A DNA stretch of 64,000 nucleotides, taken from NCBI GenBank assembly GCA_028877205.1, contig JAPPHY010000011.1, positions 17,218 through 81,217 of the forward strand, given 5' to 3'. Every line of letters starts with the position of its first letter. Within the stretch, counting starts at the first letter, position 1. The notes beneath the pieces were generated by a model that saw nothing but the letters and a program-made list of their open reading frames with translations, was not told the origin of the DNA and did not search any database. Origin of the DNA: Chloroflexota bacterium (GTDB taxonomy: Bacteria > Chloroflexota > Dehalococcoidia > Lucifugimonadales > UBA2985). Positions 1 to 62,393 of this stretch are shown piece by piece. The position numbers were made by a program, and so were the translations under genes.

Positions 1-1000
1 GCTGGCTGGGAGTAACCACGTTCACCACCACCATCTGGTCGCCCCGTCTGCCCTTGGCCGAGTATGGCACTCCCCTGCCCTTGATGCGGAACTCGGTACC
101 GGACTGTGTGCCGCCGGGGATTCGCAGAGTCTCCGGCCCGTTGAGCGTGGGAACCTCAAGCTCATCGCCCAGCGCCGCCTGCGCGAAGTTAATGGGCAGC
201 TCCAGGAGGATGTCGTGGTCCCTGCGGGAGAAGACGCCGTGGGGCTGCACCACCAGGTTCAGGTAGAGGTCGCCGGGTGTTCCGCCGTTGGAACCCGCGT
301 CGCCCTCGCGGCTGAGGCGGACCTGCATCCCGTCCTCCACGCCAGGCGGGATGTCGACGCGGATGCGCCGCCGCCTTCGCTCGCGTGCGGAGCCGCGGCA
401 GTGGGTGCACGGGCTGGTGATCACACTGCCCTCGCCGTTGCAAGCGGTACATGCGCCCACCTGCGTGAACTGGCCGAAGATGCTGCGCTGCACCCTGCGG
501 ACCTGGCCGGAGCCGTTGCACTGGGCGCACTGGGCCGGCGCGCTGCCCGGCTCTGCGCCGCTGCCCCTGCACTCGCGGCAGGGCTCGACGCGCTCCACGT
601 CAATCTCGCGGTCGATGCCGAACACCGCCTCCTCGAACGTCATGGTGGTTCCAGCGTGTATATCGCGGCCGCGCTGCGGGGCGCGGCGTGCGCGGGCGCC
701 GAACCCGCCGAAGAACGCGTCGAATATGTCGCCGAAGCCGCCGAAGTTCTCGAACCCCTCGAAGCCGCTGCCCCGTCCCGCGCCCATGTGCCCGAAGCGG
801 TCGTACTGCGCCCGCTTCTGCGGGTCGCTGAGCACCTGGTAGGCAGCGTTGATCTCCTTGAACCGCTCCTGCGCGCCGGGATCCTTGTTCCTGTCCGGAT
901 GGTACTCCAGCGCCAAGCGCCTGAACTTGGTCCTGATGTCCTCCTGGGACGCGCTGCGAGGCACGCCGAGAACCTGATAGAAGTCTTTCTGGTTGGCCAT
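1..1000 (-). CDS. dnaJ: Molecular chaperone DnaJ. The C-terminal end runs off the window start, so it is absent from the ORF track.
   Basis: Own minus-strand translation from ATG at 1000-998: MANQKDFYQVLGV...LEYHPDRNKDPGAQERFKEINAAYQVL (J domain with HPD). G/F linker GFEGFENFGGFGDIFDAFFGG. Four zinc motifs: CRECRGSG, CAQCNGSG, CTACNGEG, CTHCRGS. Confidence 0.93.
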   Translation of the reverse strand, partial: MANQKDFYQVLGVPRSASQEDIRTKFRRLALEYHPDRNKDPGAQERFKEINAAYQVLSDPQKRAQYDRFGHMGAGRGSGFEGFENFGGFGDIFDAFFGGFGARARRAPQRGRDIHAGTTMTFEEAVFGIDREIDVERVEPCRECRGSGAEPGSAPAQCAQCNGSGQVRRVQRSIFGQFTQVGACTACNGEGSVITSPCTHCRGSARERRRRRIRVDIPPGVEDGMQVRLSREGDAGSNGGTPGDLYLNLVVQPHGVFSRRDHDILLELPINFAQAALGDELEVPTLNGPETLRIPGGTQSGTEFRIKGRGVPYSAKGRRGDQMVVVNVVTPSQ

Positions 1001-1192
1001 GCTGCTAATCTGTCCAAACGTGGAATTGACCAACCTACATTATATTGCACGCCGAATACAGAGCACAACCTGAGCCGGGCGCACGTCGGTTGCGCCGGTG
1101 CCTACCTTGGAGTAGATTACGGAAGCTCCCGCAACTCACGATCGCAGGCCCAGCAGACATCTCCGATTGGTAGCAGGGAGGCAACGCCCAAC

Positions 1193-3808
1193 GTGCGTCA
1201 ATCACCGAGTCTCGTATTAGTCACCCTGGCTGCGACAGCAGCGCTGCTGCTCGCGTCCTGCACCGCGGCGCCGACGCCCACGCCAACGGCAACTCTCGCA
1301 CCCACGCCATCGCCTGCACCGACGCCCACGCCTGCGCCAACGCTCGACGACACGACGGACGCGGAGAGGGAGGTGCTGGTGATGCTGTACTTCGCCACGG
1401 GCGGCGCGCACTGGGGCAGCAACAACAACTGGCTCAGCGACGCGCCGCTGGGCAACTGGTTTGGGGTCGACACGGGGGAGGATGGCCGCGTGGTGAGCCT
1501 CTACCTGTGGGGCAACGGCATGAGGGGAGAGATACCGCCGGGGCTGGAGACTCTCGAACGCCTGCGATGGCTCGAGCTAGGCAACAACGGGCTGCACGGG
1601 GAGATACCGCCGGAACTGGCCACGCTTGCCGATCTGCAGACGCTGTCACTCGGAGCCAACCAGCTGACGGGCGAGATCCCACCGGAGTTGGGCCAACTCT
1701 CCAACCTAGAAGAGCTGCGCCTCAGCAGCAACAGTCTAAGCGGCAAGATACCGGTGGAGCTTGGCGAGCTGTCCAGCCTGACTGATCTGAGCCTCTCCGA
1801 CAACAGCCTAACCGGGAGCATCCCGGCGGAGCTCGGCAGGCTCAACGAGCTGGAATCACTGCGACTCAACGGCAACCTGCTGAGCGGGGAGATTCCGCCG
1901 GCGCTGGGCAACCTCTCCAGCCTGAGGCAGTTGGACCTACGCCACAACCGGTTGAACGGGGGCATACCGCCTGAACTTGGCGATCTCCTAGAACTCCAGG
2001 TGCTTGCCCTGAGCGATAACCATTTGAGCGGAGCTATACCACAGGAGCTGGGCAACCTCCGCAACCTGCGTGAGCTCGCGCTGAGCAACAATCGGTTGAG
2101 CGGGGAGATACCGCCGGAGCTCGGCGAGCTATCCGACCTGCGGCATATCCGGCTCGCGGGCAACTGGTTCTCGAGGTGTGCACCCGAATGGCTGCTCAAC
2201 GTGCCGAACAACGACCTAGAGGAAATGGGCCAATCCTTCGGCAATTCGGTCTCAACTCAACCATCCACCGCGTCTGCGGAGTGGACCGCGCTTGCGGCCC
2301 TGTACTGCGCCACGAGCGGTACAACCTGGAGGGACGACACGAACTGGCTTAGCGATTCGCCTCTGGGAGAGTGGTACGGGGTCACCACGGACCAAGGCGG
2401 CCGAGTTGTGAAGCTGAAACTGTCGGAGAACCGTCTTAGCGGGAAGTTGCCGCCGGAGATCGGAAATCTCTCCAGCCTGGAGGAGTTGTCCCTCTCTCGC
2501 AACGAGCTCACGGGCGAGATTCCTCCTGAACTGGGCAGTCTCACAAAGTTGACACTGCTCAATCTCAGCAGAAACGAGTTGACCGGTGAGATGCCGCCGG
2601 AGCTCGGAAGCCTTGTCGACCTGCGGAGACTGTATCTTGACGTCAACGAGCTGAGCGGCGCGATTCCGGCGGAATTTGGCAGCCTCGTCAACCTGGAGAA
2701 CCTGATTCTCACCGCCAATAAGCTCAGCGGCCCGTTGCCGCCGGAGCTTGGACATCTCGCCAAATTGGAAGGACTCTATCTGGGATTCAACGAGCTTGAG
2801 GGTGAATTGCCTGCGCAGCTAGGCAATCTCGCCAGCTTGGAGAACCTGATTCTACCCTCCAACCGGCTCAGCGGCGTAATACCGCCAGAACTGGGCCGGC
2901 TTGTCAACCTGGAAGCGCTGCACCTCTACGGCAATCACTTGAGTGGAGAGATACCGCCGGAACTCGGAAGTCTAGTCAATCTCGATTGGCTGGACCTTTC
3001 CAGCAATGAGTTGAGCGGCGGAATTCCTCCTGAGCTGGGCTACCTCACCGGCCTGGTAACGCTTACGCTCGGGTCCAACCCGTTGGGCGGAGAGATTCCG
3101 CCGGAACTCGGAGGTTTAGCTGAGCTCCATTGGCTTGACCTTTCCGGGAGCGAGCTGAACGGGCCAATTCCGCCGGAGCTGGGCAATCTGGCCAACCTCC
3201 GAACCTTGTTTCTTTGGGGAAACGAGCTTAGCGGGCCGATACCGCCGGAGCTGGGCAGGCTCTCCAGCCTGCAATATATGGACCTCATGTACAACCAGTT
3301 GAGCGGACAGATACCGCCGGAACTGGGCAGCCTCACGAATCTGAACATCCTGAGTCTCAGAAGGAACGAACTAAGCGGCGAGATTCCGCCGGAGCTAGGC
3401 AACCTCGCCAGGCTGGAAGTATTGGACATCGACAGTAACGAACTGAGTGGAGAGATTCCGCCGGAACTGGGCAGGCTCGCCAACCTCAGATACCTGGTTC
3501 TGTCAGACAATATGCTGAGCGGTGAGATACCGCCGGAGCTGGGCAATCTAGCCAATCTTGAATCACTGAATCTGTCTGACAACAACCTGAGCGGAGAAAT
3601 ACCGATTGAGTTGGGCGATCTCTCCAAGCTCGAATCCATTTCTCTGTCGGACAACCACTTGAGCGGGGAGATTCCACCGGAGCTGGACAATCCCCCCACA
3701 CTGCGCAGTCTCTACCTCTCCGGCAACCGGTTTACGGGCTGCATCCCACCTGAGCTAACTGGCGTTCTCACCAACGATCTCTACCAGCTCGGGCTGCCGT
3801 TCTGCTAG
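1193..3808 (+). CDS. Exported lipoprotein with two tandem modules of plant-type 24-residue leucine-rich repeats (about 10 + 19 repeats)
   Basis: GTG at 1193 is in frame with the 215..3808 ORF, with RBS GGGAGG at about 1176-1181. Signal/lipobox VLVTLAATAALLLASC, then a PTPTPT linker. Repeat consensus LxxLxxLxLxxNxLSGEIPPELGx. Two cap segments: WLSDAPLGNWFGVDTGEDGRVVSLYL and WLSDSPLGEWYGVTTDQGGRVVKLKL. The part of the ORF upstream of 1193 is antisense to dnaJ. Confidence 0.85.
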   Translation: MRQSPSLVLVTLAATAALLLASCTAAPTPTPTATLAPTPSPAPTPTPAPTLDDTTDAEREVLVMLYFATGGAHWGSNNNWLSDAPLGNWFGVDTGEDGRVVSLYLWGNGMRGEIPPGLETLERLRWLELGNNGLHGEIPPELATLADLQTLSLGANQLTGEIPPELGQLSNLEELRLSSNSLSGKIPVELGELSSLTDLSLSDNSLTGSIPAELGRLNELESLRLNGNLLSGEIPPALGNLSSLRQLDLRHNRLNGGIPPELGDLLELQVLALSDNHLSGAIPQELGNLRNLRELALSNNRLSGEIPPELGELSDLRHIRLAGNWFSRCAPEWLLNVPNNDLEEMGQSFGNSVSTQPSTASAEWTALAALYCATSGTTWRDDTNWLSDSPLGEWYGVTTDQGGRVVKLKLSENRLSGKLPPEIGNLSSLEELSLSRNELTGEIPPELGSLTKLTLLNLSRNELTGEMPPELGSLVDLRRLYLDVNELSGAIPAEFGSLVNLENLILTANKLSGPLPPELGHLAKLEGLYLGFNELEGELPAQLGNLASLENLILPSNRLSGVIPPELGRLVNLEALHLYGNHLSGEIPPELGSLVNLDWLDLSSNELSGGIPPELGYLTGLVTLTLGSNPLGGEIPPELGGLAELHWLDLSGSELNGPIPPELGNLANLRTLFLWGNELSGPIPPELGRLSSLQYMDLMYNQLSGQIPPELGSLTNLNILSLRRNELSGEIPPELGNLARLEVLDIDSNELSGEIPPELGRLANLRYLVLSDNMLSGEIPPELGNLANLESLNLSDNNLSGEIPIELGDLSKLESISLSDNHLSGEIPPELDNPPTLRSLYLSGNRFTGCIPPELTGVLTNDLYQLGLPFC

Positions 3809-5636: not shown

Positions 5637-6830
5637 ATGGCAGGCCCACTCGACGGCATCGTGGTGCTGGACGTCACGCACGTCCTGGCCGGCCCGTTCG
5701 CCGCCGCCACGCTCGCCGACCTCGGCGCGCGGGTCGTCAAGATCGAGCAGCCCATCGTCGGCGACCGCGCACGCGCCAGCGGCCCCTTCATCGACGGCGA
5801 GAGCTCCTACTTCATGAGCATCAACCGCGGCAAGCTGGGCGCCACCATCGACCTGTCCATGCCAGAAGGCCGCGACGCCTTCCTCAGGCTCGTCGATAGC
5901 GCCGACGTCGTCCTGGAGAACCTCTCGCCCGGCGCCATGCGACGCCTGGGCCTCGATTATCCTGTCCTTTCTCAGCACAACCCCCGCCTCGTCTACGCCG
6001 CCATATCCGGCTTCGGGCAGGACGGCCCATACGCCCACAAGCGCGCGCTGGACGTCGTGGTGCAGGGCATGGGCGGCGTCATGAGCATCACCGGCGAGCC
6101 GGGCGGCCCTCCCCTCCGTCCGGGCGTGTCACAGGGCGACATCACCGCTGGCCTCTACAGCGTCATCGGCATACTCGCTGCACTGCAGGAGCGCGAGCGG
6201 AGCGGGCTGGGCCAGATGGTCGATATCGCCATGCTCGACTGCCAGGTAGCCATCCTGGAGAACGCGCTCGGCCGGTATTTCGCCACGGGCGAGGTGCCCC
6301 AGCCGCTGGGCACGCGGCACCCCGTCATCGCCCCGTTCCAGGCGTTCCGCACCGCCGACGGCTACGTGACCATCGCGCTCGCCGACGGCCGGCAGGACAT
6401 GTGGCCGCTCTTCTGCTCCGCGATCGACCGCATCGACCTGATCGACGACCCGCGATACGAGGACGGCTGGGTGCGCAGCCGGCAGTGGGACGTGCTCGAG
6501 CCCATCATCGCCGAGGCCATCGCCAAGAGGACGACCGCGGAGTGGATCGAGGAACTGGAGGCGCTGGGCATTCCCTGCGGCCCCATCAACACCATCGACC
6601 AGGTTGCGCACGACCCGCAGGTGCTCCACCGCGGGATGATCACGGACGTGCCGCACCCGCGCCTGGGCAGCGTGCGCATGACTAATACGCCCGTGGGCCT
6701 GTCACGCACGCCCGGCGGCGCGGAGCAGCCCGCCCCGGACCTGGGCGAACACACCGAGCAGGTACTCAGGGAGCTGGCCGGCATGAGCGACGAGGAAATC
6801 GCCGCGTTGCGGGAGTCCGGCGCGATTTAG
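5637..6830 (+). CDS. Family III (CaiB/BaiF) CoA-transferase
   Basis: GPLDGIVVLDVTHVLAGPFAAATLADLGARVVKIE. Catalytic-Asp region RALDVVVQGMGGVMSITGEPGGPP. RBS GGAGGTG upstream. Confidence 0.9.
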   Translation: MAGPLDGIVVLDVTHVLAGPFAAATLADLGARVVKIEQPIVGDRARASGPFIDGESSYFMSINRGKLGATIDLSMPEGRDAFLRLVDSADVVLENLSPGAMRRLGLDYPVLSQHNPRLVYAAISGFGQDGPYAHKRALDVVVQGMGGVMSITGEPGGPPLRPGVSQGDITAGLYSVIGILAALQERERSGLGQMVDIAMLDCQVAILENALGRYFATGEVPQPLGTRHPVIAPFQAFRTADGYVTIALADGRQDMWPLFCSAIDRIDLIDDPRYEDGWVRSRQWDVLEPIIAEAIAKRTTAEWIEELEALGIPCGPINTIDQVAHDPQVLHRGMITDVPHPRLGSVRMTNTPVGLSRTPGGAEQPAPDLGEHTEQVLRELAGMSDEEIAALRESGAI

Positions 6831-9952: not shown

Positions 9953-10696
9953 CTAATTCCTGTAGGACGAGTCCTTCCGGTCGATCGTGCGCAGGAGCCA
10001 GGCCCACTCCAGGTCTACGGGCTCCCTGTCTGCCAGGGCAGCAGCCTGTTCAATGGCTGGCAAGGGCGCCCGGCGGATGGCTTGGCCGGTCGATTGGGCC
10101 AGCACCTGGACCTTGCACGCCTGCTCCAGCTGCCACATCCTGAGCCACGCCTCAGCGACGGAGCGGCCCACGGTCAGCAGGCCGTGATTGCGCATGATCA
10201 TCGCATTCTTGTCGCCGAGGTCGGTCACGAGCCGTTCTCGCTCGTCGATGTCCACGGCCACTCCCTCGAACTCGTGGTAAGCGACGCGCTCGTGAAACTC
10301 ATAGCCGTCCTGCTGAAGCGGCATCAGCCCTTTCGCCAACGCCGACACCGCCATGCCGTATGGCGTGTGGGTGTGCATCACGCAGGTCACGTCGTGCCTG
10401 GCTGCGTGTATGGCGGAGTGGATGACGTAGCCGGTGACGTTTATTCTGTGATCGCCTTCGTCGAGGATGTTCCCGTCCATGTCGATCGTGACGAGGTTCG
10501 AAGCCGTGACTTCCTCGTACCCGAGGCCGTACTCATTGATGAGGAACTGGTCCTCCGTGTCCGGCACACGCGCCGTGATGTGGTTGTAGATGAGGGATGT
10601 CATGCCGAAGTGGTCGGTGAGGCGATATGCGGCGGCCAGGTCTACGCGGGCCTTCCACTCGGCATCGGGGAAGTTGCTTCGCTCATCCTGCGTCAT
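9953..10696 (-). CDS. Class II aldolase/adducin family protein
   Basis: GYVIHSAIHAARHDVTCVMHTHTPYGMAVSAL...MRNHGLLTVG. Confidence 0.85.
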   Translation of the reverse strand: MTQDERSNFPDAEWKARVDLAAAYRLTDHFGMTSLIYNHITARVPDTEDQFLINEYGLGYEEVTASNLVTIDMDGNILDEGDHRINVTGYVIHSAIHAARHDVTCVMHTHTPYGMAVSALAKGLMPLQQDGYEFHERVAYHEFEGVAVDIDERERLVTDLGDKNAMIMRNHGLLTVGRSVAEAWLRMWQLEQACKVQVLAQSTGQAIRRAPLPAIEQAAALADREPVDLEWAWLLRTIDRKDSSYRN

Positions 10697-10943
10697 AGGT
10701 AGCTCCTTGTCTCATGTGCCGCCGCGCAACCTACGTTGTGCCGGAGCGACACGGGTCAGAGTCTCTCCCGAATGGTACCGCCTGGTGACTGCCCCGTCCA
10801 GCGGCTGCATTGGTCGATCGTGCGCGGCCTGCCGGTCGTCGCCGGCCACGACCTTCGTACTCCTGTTTCGCGGGCAAGGCCCGTGATAACATGGTGCTCG
10901 GCCACCTAACGGCACCTGAACGCTGGCAACACAGGAGTAGCCC

Positions 10944-11138: not shown

Positions 11139-11436
11139 GGCTCGCCGGGGATGTGCGCCAGCTCCGTCGACTCGACAAGGGGCATCCGACTGAGGGCATC
11201 GAGTAGCAATCGGTCAAGGATCGCAATGCGTTGAGCGTAGCAGAGCTACGCCAACATCGGCATCTCTTAACGAAAAATCCCATTTGCAGCAAACGCCGAT
11301 GACAAATTTGACGTCTTGACGAAACATAGGCCGATGGCTCATATTCCAGAGAGATTGAGGATACATCACAATGACCAGCGGGAGACTCGTCCCATGATAG
11401 GAAAATCTGACTGCCCACTAGTTCGAGGAGGACCAG

Positions 11437-12552
11437 ATGGTCAGCCTAGAAGCTAACGAGGGCGACAAGATATCGGCGATCGAAGCGGATGTGGAGGTTG
11501 AGGACCAAGACGTCGATTCAGTTGCGCCGGTGCGCTACGAGATCACCAGCTTCGGCGTAGACTTCGATGTAGAGGGGCTCTTCCGTCGCCTCGAACGAGG
11601 CGAAATCGCAATTCCAAAATTCCAACGGAACTTCGTCTGGAGTCTCAGACACTCCTCTAGATTCATCGAATCCTTGCTGTTGGGTCTGCCCGTTCCCGGC
11701 ATCTTCTTGTCTCGAGACTTCGACTCGGACAAGTACGTGGTGATCGACGGACAGCAGCGCCTCAAGAGCCTCCAGTTCTTCTGCAATGGAGTGTTTAACC
11801 CATCGGCTGAAGCAAACACACAGCGGACGTTCAAGTTGACTGGGGTTCAGCAAGAGTTCGAAGGACTAACGTACCAAGAGTTGTCACCCCGCGACAGGTT
11901 CCGTATCGACAACTCCGTCATTCACGCAACGGTCGTCAAACAGGACGCTCCGGCCGAGGACAATACAAGCGTATACCATGTCTTTGACAGGATTAACAGT
12001 ACTGGCCTACGCCTGTCAGCCCAAGAGATTCGCAGTGCTATATGTCACGGCAAGTTCATTGACAAGCTTGGCATCCTCAATGAGCATCCAAGCTGGAGGT
12101 CGATGTTCGGAAGAGTACACTCTCGGATGAGGGACCAAGAGCTTATACTCCGTTTCTTGGCATTTTTCTTCGACGAGGCTCTCTACAACCCTCCTATGTC
12201 AGAGTTCTTAACCGTGTTCGTTCAGAAGAATCGGAATCCACAGGATGATTTCCTTACGGAGTCTAATGACATATTCACCCAAACAATGGATGCCTTCATG
12301 GGTGCTCTGGGTGAACGCGCGTTCCGTATTGAACGGGCACTGAACGCTGCCATATTCGACTCGATGTCTGTCGGCTTGGCTAGGAGGATTGCCTCGTCGA
12401 ACAACCTTCCTGAGCCCGAGCCAATTAAGGCGGCCCACCGTTCTTTAATTGAAGATCGAGACTACTTGGAGGCGGTATCACGATCCACTGCAGATGAGCG
12501 GTCTGTTTCCATACGCATGACGAAAGCCGTCGAGCGCTTCGCAGTTCTGTGA
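11437..12552 (+). CDS. DUF262 (ParB-like nuclease/NTPase superfamily) protein without a DUF1524/HNH C-terminal domain
   Basis: IPKFQRNFVW and VVIDGQQRLKSL (DGQQR encoded at 11746-11760). Also FDRINSTGLRLSAQEIR and MRDQELILRFLAFF. RBS GAGGAGG before the ATG. AT-richer than the flanks (the line at 12181 counted 27/60 GC). Confidence 0.8.
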   Translation: MVSLEANEGDKISAIEADVEVEDQDVDSVAPVRYEITSFGVDFDVEGLFRRLERGEIAIPKFQRNFVWSLRHSSRFIESLLLGLPVPGIFLSRDFDSDKYVVIDGQQRLKSLQFFCNGVFNPSAEANTQRTFKLTGVQQEFEGLTYQELSPRDRFRIDNSVIHATVVKQDAPAEDNTSVYHVFDRINSTGLRLSAQEIRSAICHGKFIDKLGILNEHPSWRSMFGRVHSRMRDQELILRFLAFFFDEALYNPPMSEFLTVFVQKNRNPQDDFLTESNDIFTQTMDAFMGALGERAFRIERALNAAIFDSMSVGLARRIASSNNLPEPEPIKAAHRSLIEDRDYLEAVSRSTADERSVSIRMTKAVERFAVL

Positions 12553-12553
12553 G

Positions 12554-13057
12554 ATGCGTAATCGGGAACTCGCAAGCCAACTCGACTCGCTGAAGTCCCT
12601 GCTGGCAGTTACAGACACCGCCACGGGCGGCAATATAGAGCTCGTTGGTCATTGGGGAAGGTATCTCTGTGTCTTGACCGCCGGCTTCCTCGAGAACGCT
12701 CTAAGAGAAGTGTTTAGCGAATTCGTGAGAAATGCTGCTAGTCCTCAGGTAGCTAGTTTCGCCACTAGGAGATTGGAGCGAATCTCCAACCCAAAATCGG
12801 GCCGCTTCATCGAAACCGCACAAAGCTTCGACTTCGTATGGGCTAGCGACCTAGAAGACTTCCTGAATGCGGACGGAGGACGGAGGCGAAATGCTATAGA
12901 TTCGATTATGAGCAACCGCAACCGGATCGCCCATGGTGAGAGTGTTCAAGTATCCGTTGGCCGGGTCCGGGAGTACCTACCCGGTTGCATTCAAGTTGTC
13001 GAGTTTATTGAGAATCAGTTGCTCGGCACTACATCTCACGAGCCTAGAGCGGTTTGA
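12554..13057 (+). CDS. HEPN-domain protein (R-x4-H; resembles the MAE_28990/MAE_18760-type HEPN family), predicted RNase
   Basis: All-helical 167-aa protein. IDSIMSNRNRIAHGES contains R122-N-R-I-A-H127 (12917-12934). The ATG lies 1 nt after the DUF262 stop (TGAgATG). Confidence 0.65.
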   Translation: MRNRELASQLDSLKSLLAVTDTATGGNIELVGHWGRYLCVLTAGFLENALREVFSEFVRNAASPQVASFATRRLERISNPKSGRFIETAQSFDFVWASDLEDFLNADGGRRRNAIDSIMSNRNRIAHGESVQVSVGRVREYLPGCIQVVEFIENQLLGTTSHEPRAV

Positions 13058-36536: not shown

Positions 36537-36842
36537 ATGTTTGCGTACGACGAAATTGTGACCGTGCGAGACAGGGACGGCGTCGAGTACGGGCGTTGTC
36601 ACATGGTCGGCTGGGTGAACGTCAGCGACGACGGTACGGGCCGATGGCACGGCGAGCTCATGGGCATCGACGGGCGGTTCTTCGAGTTTGCGCTCGTGCA
36701 GGTGGAGAAGAAGGCGCTGCTCATTGAGTGCGAGGACGGTGCTACGGCGCGCATACTGCCGCCGACCATGATGGACGCTCAGAGCACGGGCACACGCTGC
36801 TTCTTCGAGGGCATCTGGCCGCCGCCGCGGCCGGTGGGCTAG
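36537..36842 (+). CDS. Hypothetical protein
   Basis: ATG at 36537 with GGAGA upstream. No recognisable motif. Its 3' end overlaps the convergent methyltransferase gene by 4 nt. Confidence 0.4.
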   Translation: MFAYDEIVTVRDRDGVEYGRCHMVGWVNVSDDGTGRWHGELMGIDGRFFEFALVQVEKKALLIECEDGATARILPPTMMDAQSTGTRCFFEGIWPPPRPVG

Positions 36843-38071
36843 CGCCTAGTCAGCACTACCAACTGCTCCGCCTTTATGCGCCGGTCCGGCGCGCCGGTGG
36901 CCGGGTTCACCCTGTACGAGAACAGGTTCTTGCTGACTATAGTGTCCACAAGCGTGGCCTCGTGCTGCCAGCCGAGCGCCTCAAAGTGCTCGACGAATAT
37001 GCGGTCGATGGGTATAGGCCGAGTGCGGATAGTGGCCGGCCCCACGAAAAGCAGTAGCTTCTCCGATATTCGCTCCTGCAGTTGCGTGAGTGTGCCCAGC
37101 ACACCGAAGAAGTAACGCCGGTACAGGCGCGCCATGTGCGGCTCCCGGATGGCCTCCAGGCACTCGTGGTACGTATCGGAGTGGATTGGAATCTCCGGCA
37201 CGTCCTGGTAGGGAAATTCCAGCTTGCTTAGCCTTCGCACCGCCTCCGCGGAGTGCCCCAGCCAGAACAGGTCCATCTTGGATGCGCGGATGTACTCCTG
37301 CGCCTGGAGGTAAGGCGGCGAGGTGATGAGCACGTCGTGGGCCGTTTCGGACGTCATGGCCAGGCCGTCTATGCCCGCACGCACGGCGGAGCGCACGGGC
37401 TTGGGGCCCAACGCGGCGTACTCCGCCTGCGCGGCCAGCACGAGCTCCACGCCTTCCCGCACTCGCCTGTAGAACTCGCCCTGCCAGTCTGCCTGCTCCA
37501 GCCTGTCTGCCCGCGCCCTGGCGACCTTTGACCGGGACAGCTTCTGTCGCTTCTCGTCGTCCAGGGAGAAGTAGCGCGTGGTCTTCATCAGGGGTATGAG
37601 CAGCGCCCGCCTGGTGTCCGGGTTGGTCAGGGAGTGGTAGAAACCCCACGCCTCCGCAATCATCGGGAGGAACGGCTCGGGGTACCAGTAGGCCACGTTG
37701 GGCCAGTCCGGTTCGAACGGTGTGCGGTGGGCGCGCATATCGTCGACCAAAGCGGCGGCGTCCACGTCCGCTGGGGACGCGATGGCGACATCGTGAAGCG
37801 GCTTCAGGAGCGGGTTGAGGTCCCACAGCTCGTAGTCGTGGCCTGCGATGCGAGCCACGGCCCCCGCTGTGCCGTAGCCGGCGAATGGGTCGATCACGCT
37901 CGTGCCCGGCGCGGCGTAGCGCTTCAGGGCGTAGGCGATGACCTGAGGGATGAATTTGGCCGGGTACTTGTAGAGGCCGAAAGTGGCGTAGGTGGTGGAT
38001 GGGATCTCCGGCACCAGGTCGCGGAAAACCACGGCAGTCTCCGTGGCCGTGGGGCGGTCTGAGTGGGCCAA
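36839..38071 (-). CDS. DNA (N6-adenine or N4-cytosine) methyltransferase with no adjacent restriction gene
   Basis: YKYPAKFIPQV, motif I VIDPFAGYGTAG (about residue 60), motif IV LITSPPYLQAQEY (about residue 240). Confidence 0.75.
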   Translation of the reverse strand: MAHSDRPTATETAVVFRDLVPEIPSTTYATFGLYKYPAKFIPQVIAYALKRYAAPGTSVIDPFAGYGTAGAVARIAGHDYELWDLNPLLKPLHDVAIASPADVDAAALVDDMRAHRTPFEPDWPNVAYWYPEPFLPMIAEAWGFYHSLTNPDTRRALLIPLMKTTRYFSLDDEKRQKLSRSKVARARADRLEQADWQGEFYRRVREGVELVLAAQAEYAALGPKPVRSAVRAGIDGLAMTSETAHDVLITSPPYLQAQEYIRASKMDLFWLGHSAEAVRRLSKLEFPYQDVPEIPIHSDTYHECLEAIREPHMARLYRRYFFGVLGTLTQLQERISEKLLLFVGPATIRTRPIPIDRIFVEHFEALGWQHEATLVDTIVSKNLFSYRVNPATGAPDRRIKAEQLVVLTRR

Positions 38072-38528: not shown

Positions 38529-38626
38529 CGGGTGTCGAACCCGCGTCTGAGGTTCCACGAATGGCCCGCGCCGCAGACTGAGGCGCAGGTACGCGGTCAG
38601 TGTGGGCACGGGAGCAGCATTTCTCC

Positions 38627-38971
38627 ATGACCGATCAGTGCATCTTCTGCAGGATCGCGCGAGGCGACATCCCTAGCGATATGCTGGACCGCGACCACAC
38701 GGCATTCGTCATCAGGGACATCAACCCAAAGGCGTCCACACATCTGCTCGTGATCCCACTTGAGCACGTGACCCGCATCGCCGACTTCAAAGTGGACGGA
38801 GGCGGCCTGCTTGGGCACATGATGCTGATGGCGCGCGACGCCGCCCGGCGCGAGGGGATGGTCGAGTCCGGGTACAGGCTGGTCATCAACCAGGGACCGG
38901 ATTCCGGACAGGAGGTCGATCACCTGCACCTGCACGTACTCGGCGGCAACCGGCTGGGGGCGATGGGCTGA
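38627..38971 (+). CDS. HIT (histidine triad) family protein
   Basis: CIFCRIARGDIPS...NPKASTHLLVIP...QEVDHLHLHVLGG. Confidence 0.9.
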   Translation: MTDQCIFCRIARGDIPSDMLDRDHTAFVIRDINPKASTHLLVIPLEHVTRIADFKVDGGGLLGHMMLMARDAARREGMVESGYRLVINQGPDSGQEVDHLHLHVLGGNRLGAMG

Positions 38972-39025: not shown

Positions 39026-39328
39026 TTGCTTCGTGATCTGAGGATCGATGACGACGGCGTCCACATTGACTGGGACGACGGCCATTCAGGATTCTGGCCC
39101 CACCGCTACCTGCGCGGCCACTGCTGCTGTGCAGGCTGCGTGGAGGAGATGACAGGCCGCCGCAGGATCACGGAGGACGACGTGCGCGAGGACGTATTCG
39201 CGATCGAGTGGATGCCGATAGGCCGCTATGCCGTGCAGTTCCTCTGGAGCGACGCCCACGACTCCGGCATCTACCCGTTCGAGCTGCTGCGGCGCCTGTG
39301 CCGCTGCCAGGAATGCGTGCTAGGATAG
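39026..39328 (+). CDS. DUF971 (gamma-butyrobetaine hydroxylase-like N-terminal) domain protein
   Basis: VHIDWDDGHSGFWPHRYLRGHCCCAGC...YAVQFLWSDAHDSGIYPFELLR. TTG start with RBS GAGGAGG. Confidence 0.75.
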   Translation: MLRDLRIDDDGVHIDWDDGHSGFWPHRYLRGHCCCAGCVEEMTGRRRITEDDVREDVFAIEWMPIGRYAVQFLWSDAHDSGIYPFELLRRLCRCQECVLG

Positions 39329-39424
39329 CGCGGTCGGCGCGCAGGCGGCGTGTGGCGGGTTCGGGCTGCATCGTATAGAATGGCGTGGCGGGCCATCAGC
39401 CGCAGGCCCAAAGGGAGGTGCCCC

Positions 39425-40069
39425 ATGACCGCAAGTGATACAGGCGCAAAGCTTGTTCCCGTCACCGTCTGGTACGACTACATCTGACCCTGGTGCTACG
39501 TGGGACTGGCCAGGTTGGACCAGCTTGAACAGGACTTTCCGCTCGACGTAACGTACAAGAGCTTCTACCTCAGGCCGGACATGCCCCCGGAGGGCATCGT
39601 GCGACAGCCGCGGGAGGGCGAACAGGTTGGATCGCCGCTGACGGGCCACCTGGGCGAGGTGGCTGAGGAAGCCGGTCTGGTGATGCGCCGCGCGCCGCTC
39701 ACGCCCAACACCCGTCTGGCCTTTGAGGCCTCCGAGTTCGCAAAGGACGCGGGCCTCTTCGAGCCGTTCCACCGGGAGTGCTACCGCGCATTCTGGGAGG
39801 ACGGAGCGAACCTCGGAGAGTTGGCAGTGCTCCAGCAGATCGGCAAGCAGGTGGGCCTGGATCCGGCCGCGATGGAGGAACGCCTGGCCGCGGGTCACTA
39901 CACCCCTGCCGCGCAGTCGCAGTACGAGGAGGCCCTTTCGATCGGCGTGAGAGGCATTCCGTCCTTCATCATCGGGCGGTACTTCTTCTCCGGAGCCCAG
40001 CCCTACGACCTCTTCAAGAGGGTGGCTGACATGGCGCAGAAGGAGGAGGCCGGCGAGGGCGAAGGCTGA
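39425..40069 (+). CDS. DsbA/FrnE-family thiol:disulfide oxidoreductase, predicted selenoprotein (in-frame UGA at 39485-39487 giving a U-P-W-C redox motif)
   Basis: ATG at 39425 preceded by RBS AAGGGAGGTG. It reads MTASDTGAKLVPVTVWYDYI-TGA-PWCYVGLARLDQLE, in frame with the ORF-track ORF 39500..40069. The family normally has C-P-W-C-Y at this spot. C-terminal GIPSFIIG...GAQP. Confidence 0.6.
39506..39523 (+). promoter_or_regulatory. Candidate bacterial SECIS-like hairpin downstream of the UGA
   Basis: CTGGCC-AGGTT-GGACCAG: a 4+2 bp stem with one bulged A, and a G/U-containing apical loop 25-29 nt after the UGA. Hand fold only. Confidence 0.3.
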
Positions 40070-40148: not shown

Positions 40149-40160
40149 GTGGGTACGCTA

Positions 40161-40176
40161 AGAAAGGAGGTGATCC
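40161..40176 (+). promoter_or_regulatory. Extended Shine-Dalgarno: 16-nt perfect complement of the canonical 16S rRNA 3' tail
   Basis: AGAAAGGAGGTGATCC is the reverse complement of GGAUCACCUCCUUUCU. A TTG start follows 9 nt after GGAGG. The 14-codon ORF at 40180-40224 encodes MLSDKRAVSEVSVA. Confidence 0.5.
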
Positions 40177-40280
40177 ATATTGTTATCTGATAAACGGGCT
40201 GTTAGTGAGGTGTCTGTAGCGTAAACGGCACTGGACGCAAGCCGCTCCGGTATCCGTTTGCGGAATACCGGCAGGCACCG

Positions 40281-40351
40281 GACCCCGAAGCTCCCGGCTC
40301 AAGTCCACCGGGACAGTCTTCAGACTGAAGCGCTTCGGGGTCTTTCCTTTT
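40281..40351 (+). terminator. Compound intrinsic terminator (long-range stem enclosing two hairpins, then a U-tract)
   Basis: GACCCCGAAGC (40281-40291) pairs with GCTTCGGGGTC (40332-40342). Inner hairpins: CCCGG/CCGGG (40293-40312) and CAGTC-TTCA-GACTG (40314-40327). Followed by TTTCCTTTT. Confidence 0.55.
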
Positions 40352-59966: not shown

Positions 59967-62393
59967 ATGGCAGAGGTTTTCGAAGGACTCAAGGTCGTTG
60001 ACTTCACCGAAGGGATGCTGGGAGCGGTTACCACCATGGTGCTCTCGGACTTCGGGGCCGACGTGGTCAAGGTGGAGCCTCCCGGCGGACACCGGTCCAG
60101 GAGCATTCCCGCGGCCCAGCAGTGGAACCGCGGCAAGAGAAGCGTGGTACTGGACCTGGAGAACGCGGAGGACCAGGAGAAGGCGCGACGATTGTCGCTT
60201 CAGTCGGACGTGGTCATCGAGAGCTTCACGCCCGGCGCCACCAATCGCATGGGCATCGACTACGAGACTCTCAGGGCCCAGCGTCCCGACCTGGTCTACG
60301 TGTCGCTGACCGGCTGGGGGCAGAAGGGCCCCTACGCGCACTACAAGCCCTACGAGGGCGCGGTGGCAGCCAAGATCGGCAGGATGATGGTCTTCTCCGG
60401 GCAGGCCAACCGGCCCGGGCCACACTACGCGGCGGTGCAGACCGCACACCACGCCGCCAACATGGGTGCCGTGCGCGGCATCATCGCCGCGCTCCACGTG
60501 CGAGACAAGACGGGCCAGGGCCAGAAGGTGGAGACCAGCCTCATGCAGGCCATGAACCTCTACGAGTTCATCGACCTGGTCTTCTGGCAGATGATGGTAC
60601 GCTTCCCTGACGTGTTCACGGAGCACCCCTGGCTGCGCGGCTACCCCACGCTCGCTTACATCCCGGTGCGCACCAAGGACGGCGAATGGATACAGATGGC
60701 GAACACCGTTCAGCGCCTCTTCGTGGCCATGATCCACGACATCGGCCTGGGCCACATCTTCGAAGACCCCCGCTTCGAAAAGGCGCCCGTGCTCCTGCCC
60801 GATGACCGCGAGGAGCTGCGCATGATCATGCTGTCCCGCTTCCAGGAGCAGACTCTGGAGGAGTGGATGGACCTGTTCGTCAACAAGACCAGGGACGTCG
60901 CCGCAGAGCCATACCGCACCTCCGAGCAGGGCATGACCCATCCCCAGATGATCCACAACGGCCACGTGCGGGACGTGGAAGACCCGGTGGTGGGCATGAT
61001 GAAGCAGCTCGGCCCCATTTCGCTCATGTCGGACACGCCCGGCCGGATTCAGGGGCCTTCGCCGCTGCCCGGCCAGCACACCGAGGAGGTGCTGGCGTCG
61101 CTGAACGGCTCCAACGGCCACCACGCCAACGGCTACGGCTCCGAGCCTCTGCCCACGCACCCGTTGGAGGACGTAACAGTGCTGGACCTGGCCACGGTCA
61201 TCGCCGGGCCGCTCGGCTGTGCCCTGCTGGGCGAGATGGGAGCAAGGGTGATCCGCATCGAGCCGCCCGGAGGCGATCTGCTGCGAGGCATGTCGCTGGG
61301 CGTAACCGCCAACAAGACGATGGCCGGCTCAGAGGACATCTGCCTGGACCTCAGCACGGAGGAGGGCCAGAAGATTGTGCACCAGCTGGTGGCCAAGGCA
61401 GACATCCTGGTACACAACATGCGCCCCGGCGCGCCTGAGCGTGTGGGCATAGGCTTCGACCAGCTCATGGAGATCAACCCGCAGTTGGTGTACGTCTACG
61501 CCGGAGGCTACGGCCCCACCGGTCCGCACTCGCACCGACCGTCCATGCACCCCATACCCGGCGCCGTCTGCGGCGGCGTGGTCACACAGATGGGCAAGGG
61601 CGCCATACCGCCTGCCGACCAGGAAATGACCCTGGAGGAGATCAAGGAGACCTCGCGCCGGTTCGGCCGCGCCAACGAGGGCAACCCCGATCCCAACTCG
61701 TCGATGGCCGTCTCAGTGGCGGCCCTGCTGGGCTTCCACGCCCGAAAGCGCACGGGCAAGGGCCAGTACATCACCTCGGCAATGATCCAGGCCAACGCAT
61801 ACGCCAATGCCGATGACTTCTTCTGGTACGAGGGCAAGCCCCCTCGGCAGATGCCCGACGCCGACGGCTACGGCCTCCACGCCCTCTACCGCCTCTATGA
61901 GGTCGAGAAGGGCTGGGTCTTCCTGGCCGCGCCGTGGGAGGAGGAGTGGCAGGCACTGTGCGAGACGATCGGCCGGGCGGACCTGCTGACCGACCCGCGG
62001 TTCGCTACCCCTGAGGCCCGCCGCGAGAACGACGATGCGCTGGTCGAGGAGCTTGGCAGCGTGCTCGCCACCCGCGAGCCCTCGGAGTGGGAGAAGCTGC
62101 TCATCGACGCGGGCGTGACGTGCGTCCGGGCGGAGGACTCCGGGCCGTACCAGTTCCACATGGAAGACCCGCACGTCCGGGAGAACGGCTACCTCACGGA
62201 GGTGGAGTCGGTGAGGTTCGGCAAGTTCTGGCGCTACAGCCCCATAGTGCGGTTCTCGCAGACCTCCCCCAAGGCGGGTGCAGGCCCACTGCGTGGCCAG
62301 CACAACGACTCCGTGCTCGAGGAGCTTGGATACAGCGCAGAGCAGATCGGCGACCTGGAGCAGCGGAAGGTAATCGCCAGGGAGGCTGTATAG
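59967..62393 (+). CDS. Tandem-duplicated family III (CaiB/BaiF) CoA-transferase, two complete domains in one 808-aa chain
   Basis: Domain 1: FEGLKVVDFTEGMLGAVTTMVLSDFGADVVKVEPPGG. Domain 2: LEDVTVLDLATVIAGPLGCALLGEMGARVIRIEPPGGD. Confidence 0.85.
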   Translation: MAEVFEGLKVVDFTEGMLGAVTTMVLSDFGADVVKVEPPGGHRSRSIPAAQQWNRGKRSVVLDLENAEDQEKARRLSLQSDVVIESFTPGATNRMGIDYETLRAQRPDLVYVSLTGWGQKGPYAHYKPYEGAVAAKIGRMMVFSGQANRPGPHYAAVQTAHHAANMGAVRGIIAALHVRDKTGQGQKVETSLMQAMNLYEFIDLVFWQMMVRFPDVFTEHPWLRGYPTLAYIPVRTKDGEWIQMANTVQRLFVAMIHDIGLGHIFEDPRFEKAPVLLPDDREELRMIMLSRFQEQTLEEWMDLFVNKTRDVAAEPYRTSEQGMTHPQMIHNGHVRDVEDPVVGMMKQLGPISLMSDTPGRIQGPSPLPGQHTEEVLASLNGSNGHHANGYGSEPLPTHPLEDVTVLDLATVIAGPLGCALLGEMGARVIRIEPPGGDLLRGMSLGVTANKTMAGSEDICLDLSTEEGQKIVHQLVAKADILVHNMRPGAPERVGIGFDQLMEINPQLVYVYAGGYGPTGPHSHRPSMHPIPGAVCGGVVTQMGKGAIPPADQEMTLEEIKETSRRFGRANEGNPDPNSSMAVSVAALLGFHARKRTGKGQYITSAMIQANAYANADDFFWYEGKPPRQMPDADGYGLHALYRLYEVEKGWVFLAAPWEEEWQALCETIGRADLLTDPRFATPEARRENDDALVEELGSVLATREPSEWEKLLIDAGVTCVRAEDSGPYQFHMEDPHVRENGYLTEVESVRFGKFWRYSPIVRFSQTSPKAGAGPLRGQHNDSVLEELGYSAEQIGDLEQRKVIAREAV

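Follow-up and report, generated by a model that had tools for sequence, protein, structure and literature searches.

The window, the 64 kb stretch of Dehalococcoidia (Chloroflexota) DNA analyzed here, carries a DsbA/FrnE-like gene with an in-frame TGA at codon 21, and this TGA is very probably a genuine, deeply conserved selenocysteine (Sec) codon. The gene is a further member of a selenoprotein family known since 2005. An earlier note, made from the sequence alone, had placed Sec at the first redox position of a DsbA/FrnE-like protein; this assignment is borne out by a Pfam PF01323 match that runs across the TGA, by alignment with the CPWC motif of FrnE, and by TGA at the same codon in 79 of 79 orthologues.

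The DsbA/FrnE-like gene and its product

The ribosome-binding site, the ATG at 39425, the TGA at 39485-39487, and the GTG at 39500 listed in the earlier note were all confirmed in the sequence. From the ATG, the frame reads MTASDTGAKLVPVTVWYDYI-TGA-PWCYVGLARL... and continues to a terminal stop (Table 1). In 65 of 80 orthologues, too, a Shine-Dalgarno-like motif stands ahead of the in-frame ATG that lies farthest upstream. The gene is intact and has a strong coding signal (GC3 0.85). Scans for sigma-70 promoters and intrinsic terminators found nothing.

Table 1 Features of the DsbA/FrnE-like gene and of its surroundings, in window coordinates
Feature	Position	Strand	Basis or remark
Full-length DsbA/FrnE-like gene, predicted selenoprotein	39425..40069	+	Translation: 214 codons, Sec = codon 21
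Shine-Dalgarno-like ribosome-binding site AAGGGAGGTG	39411..39420	+	4 nt upstream of ATG 39425; sequence read directly
Beta-1 strand codons V-P-V-T-V-W-Y-D-Y-I	39455..39484	+	Upstream of UGA; left out by gene callers
In-frame UGA, predicted Sec residue 21	39485..39487	+	TGA in 79/79 orthologues; aligned with first Cys of CPWC
Predicted redox motif U-P-W-C (Sec21, Cys24)	39485..39496	+	P, W, C invariant in 76 distinct sequences
SECIS-like hairpin	39506..39523	+	7-bp stem, -6.6 kcal/mol; CUGGCCA-GGU-UGG(A)CCAG
Pro179 codon, G-I-P-S-F loop	39959..39961	+	Pro invariant in alignment; matches FrnE G-V-P-F
Terminal stop TGA	40067-40069	+	Translation
Borderline Rfam match to Ms_IGR-5 (actinobacterial sRNA)	40155-40349	+	45.5 bits, cut-off 45
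HIT-family gene	38600-38971		Ends with TGA 38969-38971
DUF971/GBBH-like_N gene	39026-39328		Same frame as HIT-family gene, 18 codons on
410-aa ORF with SPPY motif	36839-38071	-	No Pfam match on record
GmrSD_N restriction-endonuclease-domain gene, then RiboL-PSP HEPN gene	11422-13057	+	GC3 0.57-0.63
Leucine-rich-repeat protein gene	2-3808	+	>1268 aa, extends past window start
Family III CoA-transferase gene	5637-6830	+
Family III CoA-transferase gene	59967-62393	+	808 aa, two CoA_transf_3 domains

With Cys put in place of the TGA, the 214-aa protein matches the Pfam DSBA family (PF01323) over residues 13-198 (E = 2.3e-29; score 103 bits, cut-off 25.6). Among solved structures, FrnE of Deinococcus radiodurans (PDB 5CNW, 5CP1) comes closest; it is a cytoplasmic disulfide isomerase of the DsbA family, and 5CNW matches residues 8-195 at E = 1e-22. 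Since the C-P-W-C-Y-I-G segment of FrnE aligns column for column with [TGA]-P-W-C-Y-V-G, the TGA sits at the position of the nucleophilic N-terminal Cys. U21-P-W-C24 is the sole conserved Cys/Sec pair of the protein; one further Cys, residue 119, is unconserved. Pro179 (P154 in the truncated-protein numbering of the alignment) lies in what we take, from family knowledge, to be the cis-proline loop of thioredoxin-fold oxidoreductases, facing the active site with the proline presumably in the cis conformation.

FrnE and the window protein share the beta-1/C-P-W-C-Y-x-G segment, the G-x-P-F cis-Pro loop, and the lack of a signal peptide. They differ in that FrnE has Cys at the first redox position and 260 residues, whereas the window protein would have Sec and 214. 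The C-terminal tail of FrnE bears a second Cys pair that is taken as a FrnE-defining feature. This pair is absent from the window protein, which ends at residue 214 in an acidic, Cys-free tail (...AQKEEAGEGEG). As the Cys-bearing tail is missing, the protein is, judged by its sequence, FrnE-like rather than a FrnE orthologue.

Periplasmic DsbA of Escherichia coli belongs to the same Pfam clan and likewise combines a thioredoxin fold carrying an inserted helical domain with a CxxC-type site. Its motif is C-P-H-C, in contrast to U-P-W-C here, and classical DsbA-type PDB chains match only the C-terminal half of the window protein (E about 1e-4). On inspection, the N-terminus MTASDTGAKLVPVTVWYDYI enters beta-1 directly, with no hydrophobic h-region, and the N-termini of the orthologues are polar and variable. 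The missing N-terminal hydrophobic segment points to a cytoplasmic protein. Given the absence of a signal peptide, the P-W dipeptide, and the weak sequence relationship to DsbA, the protein is probably not an oxidant of secreted proteins.

By analogy with the established chemistry of CxxC and UxxC oxidoreductases, Sec21 would be placed where the first helix of the thioredoxin fold begins, across from the Pro179 loop. There it would act as the nucleophile that attacks substrate disulfides, or would itself become oxidized, and Cys24 would resolve the intermediate to give an intramolecular selenenylsulfide. Compared with Cys, Sec has a lower pKa and undergoes faster exchange. The protein is thus probably a cytoplasmic thiol-disulfide oxidoreductase or isomerase.

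Outside close relatives, the gene neighborhood is not conserved, which leaves no operon partner to propose. Scanning the window for read-through returned off-frame noise only, apart from one same-frame continuation in which the TGA at 38969 would extend the HIT-family gene into the DUF971 gene. We rejected this candidate because gene callers give a normal length for each of the two genes; the TGA is most likely an ordinary stop, with the DUF971 gene a separate one behind it. The 410-aa ORF contains an SPPY motif (…ITSPPYLQAQEY…) that recalls N6/N4 DNA methyltransferases and lies beside the DsbA-like gene in close relatives only. About 85 nt past the DsbA-like stop, within a ~500-nt stretch that has no convincing ORF, is the Ms_IGR-5-like match; relatives show matches at 10657-10850 in both L006 and L012 (50.1 and 46.5 bits). 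The element starts with AAGGAGGUGAUCC, presumably complementary to the 3′ end of 16S rRNA, and at its end a GC-rich hairpin precedes a U-rich tail. Elsewhere in the window, the GmrSD_N/RiboL-PSP pair looks like an acquired defense islet, its GC3 comparing with about 0.8-0.9 in most neighboring genes. The leucine-rich-repeat protein comprises tens of LRR units, and more copies of the family III CoA-transferase genes flank the orthologue in L009 and L010.

Conservation of the TGA and alternative readings

We compared the DNA of 80 orthologous loci, each from a different GTDB species. All are Dehalococcoidia/Chloroflexota MAGs, and many are closed chromosomes. To the question raised with the original assignment, whether orthologues carry TGC or TGA here, the alignment gives a uniform answer: TGA occupies the Sec21 codon in all 79 loci that reach the site, TAA or TAG in none, and a homologue at 63% identity has TGT. 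The TGA stands in the context V-x-V-W-Y-D-Y-I-[TGA]-P-W-C-Y-[VI]-G, with an upstream in-frame Met in every orthologue. Among the 76 distinct sequences, it is invariant at all three positions, while the 10 codons before it and the 5 after it vary almost exclusively at third positions. The P, W, and C codons of the motif vary synonymously only, and the beta-1 codons keep an alternating hydrophobic pattern. The terminal stops of the 80 orthologues are mixed (TAG 42, TGA 19, TAA 19).

About 75 close relatives, 46-94% identical, came up in a homologue search; the distant homologues all have C-P-W-C. OZ252018.1 and OY821663.2 are relatives with 91% protein identity. Cys occupies the UGA column in P0010/L002 (63% identity, TGT codon) and in 46 other CPWC homologues. 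Both P0010 and P0062, the latter 40% identical to the window protein, are full-length with C-P-W-C. A metagenome scan with the Cys-substituted protein matched Cys-form relatives only because its back-translated patterns demanded a Cys codon.

One alternative accepts that the UGA is recoded by the SelB/SECIS route but holds that the inserted residue is Cys, delivered by a tRNA-Sec-like tRNA(Cys), or a near-cognate Trp. Recoding of UGA to Cys by SelB and a non-canonical tRNA(Cys) has been reported to occur naturally in some bacteria (Mukai 2016; Vargas-Rodriguez 2018; both cited in PMC8762117), and database entry P0012 has Trp at the UGA codon, although this is a gene-calling choice. Both versions are very unlikely in view of the many selenoprotein genes and the Sec biosynthetic system of related genomes. 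Trp as nucleophile would moreover abolish a redox motif that is under strong selection, and a plain TGT or TGC, as used by one relative, would do for Cys. Should a tRNA-Sec-like tRNA(Cys) and a SelB-type factor nevertheless decode the UGA as Cys across the Dehalococcoidia clade, the hairpin still serving as recoding signal, the 'selenoprotein' genes of the entire clade would be selenium-independent; we give this scenario very little credence.

Less probable again is that the UGA terminates translation and that the functional product is a 189-aa protein from GTG 39500, perhaps accompanied by a 20-residue peptide encoded separately upstream. Public gene calls of the clade all annotate the gene in this truncated form, exceptions among close relatives being P0010 and P0062 (C-P-W-C) and P0012 (W-P-W-C, with the TGA translated as Trp). 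Yet these calls, ~125-190 aa for close relatives, start raggedly at Met, Leu, or Val at many positions downstream of the redox motif, as is typical of a truncation artefact. A product from GTG 39500 would also lack beta-1 and U-P-W-C, both of which are under purifying selection at the amino-acid level (76 sequences), and the Pfam and FrnE alignments run through the TGA.

A single base separates TGA from a Cys codon, and the earlier note had offered a TGC-to-TGA pseudogenizing mutation or a sequencing error as its alternative. Such a mutation, or a sequencing or assembly error confined to this contig, has next to no probability and is excluded by the recurrence of the TGA in an independent assembly (scaffold L001, 99.94% identical to the window over 1.7 kb), in three additional samples that carry a 94%-identical protein, and in all 79 orthologues, with the remainder of the gene intact and GC3 high. 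A genome in which TGA is reassigned to sense throughout (genetic code 4 or 25), which would allow the frame to read through, has equally little to recommend it: TGA terminates 12 of the 32 long high-GC3 ORFs of the window and this gene itself, as it does the 19 orthologues counted above, and a predicted-gene scan of the window found no other credible in-frame TGA. Taken together, the invariance of the codon, its coding-type flanks, and the mixed terminal stops exclude error, pseudogene, split gene with a downstream start, and genome-wide reassignment.

The SECIS-like hairpin downstream of the UGA

If Sec is inserted, the ribosome would meet the UGA and the hairpin at 39506-39523 would serve as a bacterial SECIS, recruiting SelB-GTP-Sec-tRNA(Sec) so that Sec is inserted in place of termination and elongation proceeds to the true stop at 40067. 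The candidate hairpin starts 19 nt downstream of the UGA. Its pairs are C39506-G39523, U39507-A39522, G39508-C39521, G39509-C39520, C39510-G39518, C39511-G39517, and A39512-U39516, with A39519 bulged and an apical GGU loop at 39513-39515. The hairpin had been drawn by hand in the earlier note, with its loop 25-29 nt past the UGA. It does fold at that position, at the free energy given in Table 1, and its nucleotides are invariant in the window subclade against a background of 87% variation.

Folded alone, the window sequence gives no signal, its stability relative to shuffles being z = 0.01, and we therefore applied comparative tests. Against synonymous recodings, the window hairpin region scores z = -0.9. 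In 75 distinct orthologues, the 48 nt after the UGA are more stable than synonymous recodings of the same peptide, with a mean z of -1.16 and 24% below -2, compared with a mean of -0.24 for control segments (three per gene). RNAalifold on the 75 post-UGA sequences returned no clade-wide consensus structure because hairpin registers differ among subclades; in its place, we used an explicit pair count and a synonymous-site test. Neither at gathering nor at permissive thresholds does any SECIS-type model of Rfam match the hairpin.

The majority clade has its hairpin at positions +16 to +36, counted from the U of the UGA (UCGGCC-UGGANCG-GGGUCGA). Compensatory double changes occur in four of the seven pairs, 22 cells in all, a result matched by 0 of 500 shuffles, and 86% of cells are paired versus 15-55% when the register is slid. 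The window subclade comprises six species (the window, L012, L013, L014, L019, and L020), and the hairpin codons CTG GCC AGG TTG GAC CAG are identical in all six. By comparison, 87% of the other degenerate codons of the gene whose amino acid is invariant show synonymous differences, and the six-codon window of the hairpin is the sole case of zero variation among 86. In L002, the Cys form with TGT, the corresponding 18 nt form no stem (-0.8 kcal/mol), a single case. Support for the predicted hairpin is thus comparative rather than single-sequence.

In the alignment of the 57 nt from the UGA (75 orthologues), the hairpin loop lies about 20-26 nt past the UGA in most orthologues and 25-29 nt past it in the window subclade. 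A variant hairpin with a GGCC loop occurs in L015-L017. The differences in register suggest turnover of the putative SECIS within a conserved coding segment, the hairpin having apparently shifted register between subclades while Sec appears fixed in at least 79 species.

The SelB-binding SECIS of E. coli fdhF resembles the window hairpin in being intragenic, in lying right after the UGA, and in having a G-U loop and one bulge. The two share no sequence similarity, however; the bulge of the window hairpin is an A on the 3′ side, its binding of SelB is putative, and its register varies among subclades of the DsbA-like clade.

Selenoprotein family, Sec use in the lineage, and annotation

A 'DsbA-like protein' (COG2761, UxxC) was among the selenoprotein families that Zhang, Fomenko & Gladyshev (2005) newly described from the Sargasso Sea, with nine sequences and a predicted SECIS (PMC1088965); the statement in the earlier note that DsbA-like selenoproteins are described from marine metagenomes was right. 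Members were subsequently recognized in Anaeromyxobacter, Desulfovibrio, and Desulfotomaculum (PMC1794560). A survey of 2016 put the number of DsbA-like selenoprotein genes at 45, in 41 organisms (PMC5029168), and the family appears in a 2026 review under the name 'DsbA-like protein form 1, PF01323, UxxC' (PMC13188914). Form 1 and the window protein belong to the same Pfam/COG family, with Sec first in the CxxC motif, and in both genes a SECIS-type hairpin whose small apical loop contains a G lies just downstream. Cys-form homologues of form 1 are widespread, and the family comes from marine and environmental metagenomes. We see no essential difference between the two; the present sequences form a Dehalococcoidia clade with predicted Sec in all 79 species examined.

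The window contains three ordinary tRNAs, and no tRNA-Sec, SelA, SelB, or SelD was found in its 64 kb. Sec machinery was likewise absent from the ±10 kb flanks of the orthologues (1.67 Mb), which we searched with ARAGORN and by tblastn with E. coli SelA, SelB, and SelD, the SelD and SelA queries having been validated against PDB. A weak SelB-like match in L022 was rejected; it is EF-Tu in a tuf-secE-nusG-rplKAJL cluster. Selenoprotein genes are seldom linked to sel genes, and the missing sel genes in the window and the flanks are therefore unremarkable. In BSepDB, which requires at least two of SelA/SelB/SelD for a Sec-utilizing species, 'Dehalococcoidia bacterium 10f4566d-ab44-49ae-b774-fc9f760c6436' has a Sec system and 46 selenoprotein genes (PMC13326102). 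This isolate is our locus L084, and its DsbA-like gene is in the TGA form.

We also scanned all orthologue-locus DNA without bias for in-frame TGAs that align between species with coding-type substitutions. The DsbA-like cluster was recovered first, followed by ArsC-family and UGSC-family genes. The ArsC/Spx-family gene (~118 aa; PF03960, E = 2e-15) carries a conserved in-frame TGA where the catalytic Cys would be (YWWPR-U-SSC-RKxRELL). It is present in 15 genomes (L025, L035, L041, L047, L057, L065, L070, L075, L076, L078, L079, L080, L082, L086, and L087) and is found ~10 kb further downstream than the DsbA-like gene (L035, for example, + strand, TGA offset 20097). From its sequence, it is a predicted second selenoprotein family of these genomes. 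UGSC-family genes (GD-UGSC-SSC) with an in-frame TGA occur in three genomes (L024, - strand, offset 11114; L044, - strand, 11051; L061, + strand, 1559). They match PF24696 at E = 4e-57 and exceed the cut-off of NCBIfam NF041046, 'UGSC family (seleno)protein'. Counting both families, known selenoprotein genes other than the DsbA-like one (ArsC-like, UGSC) lie within 10 kb in 18 of the orthologue-bearing genomes. SelB and tRNA(Sec) presumably act in the genome of the window as well. The clade is in keeping with published evidence for very large selenoproteomes in some Dehalococcoidia.

The earlier note had warned that gene callers would truncate the gene, and the public call on the near-identical scaffold L001 is indeed 189 aa long. 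Truncated or mistranslated records account for essentially the whole clade: about 75 protein clusters (P0001-P0075) and 79 species-level genomes. No NCBIfam model covers this clade of DsbA-like selenoproteins, and for that reason public protein records truncate the clade as a whole. Because the calls are cut after the active site or mistranslated, functional inference from them misses the redox center. The practical value of the finding therefore lies in annotation. The clade also provides a clean comparative set for work on the coexistence of a SECIS with coding sequence and on its shifts inside that sequence: 79 species with Sec apparently fixed, hairpins in two registers, and one Cys revertant whose hairpin has decayed. 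For biology, it adds one more clade to a long-known selenoprotein family of many bacteria and leaves understanding unchanged. The finding is mildly notable for the apparent fixation of Sec across at least 79 Dehalococcoidia species, for SECIS registers that differ by subclade, and for a truncation that affects the entire clade.
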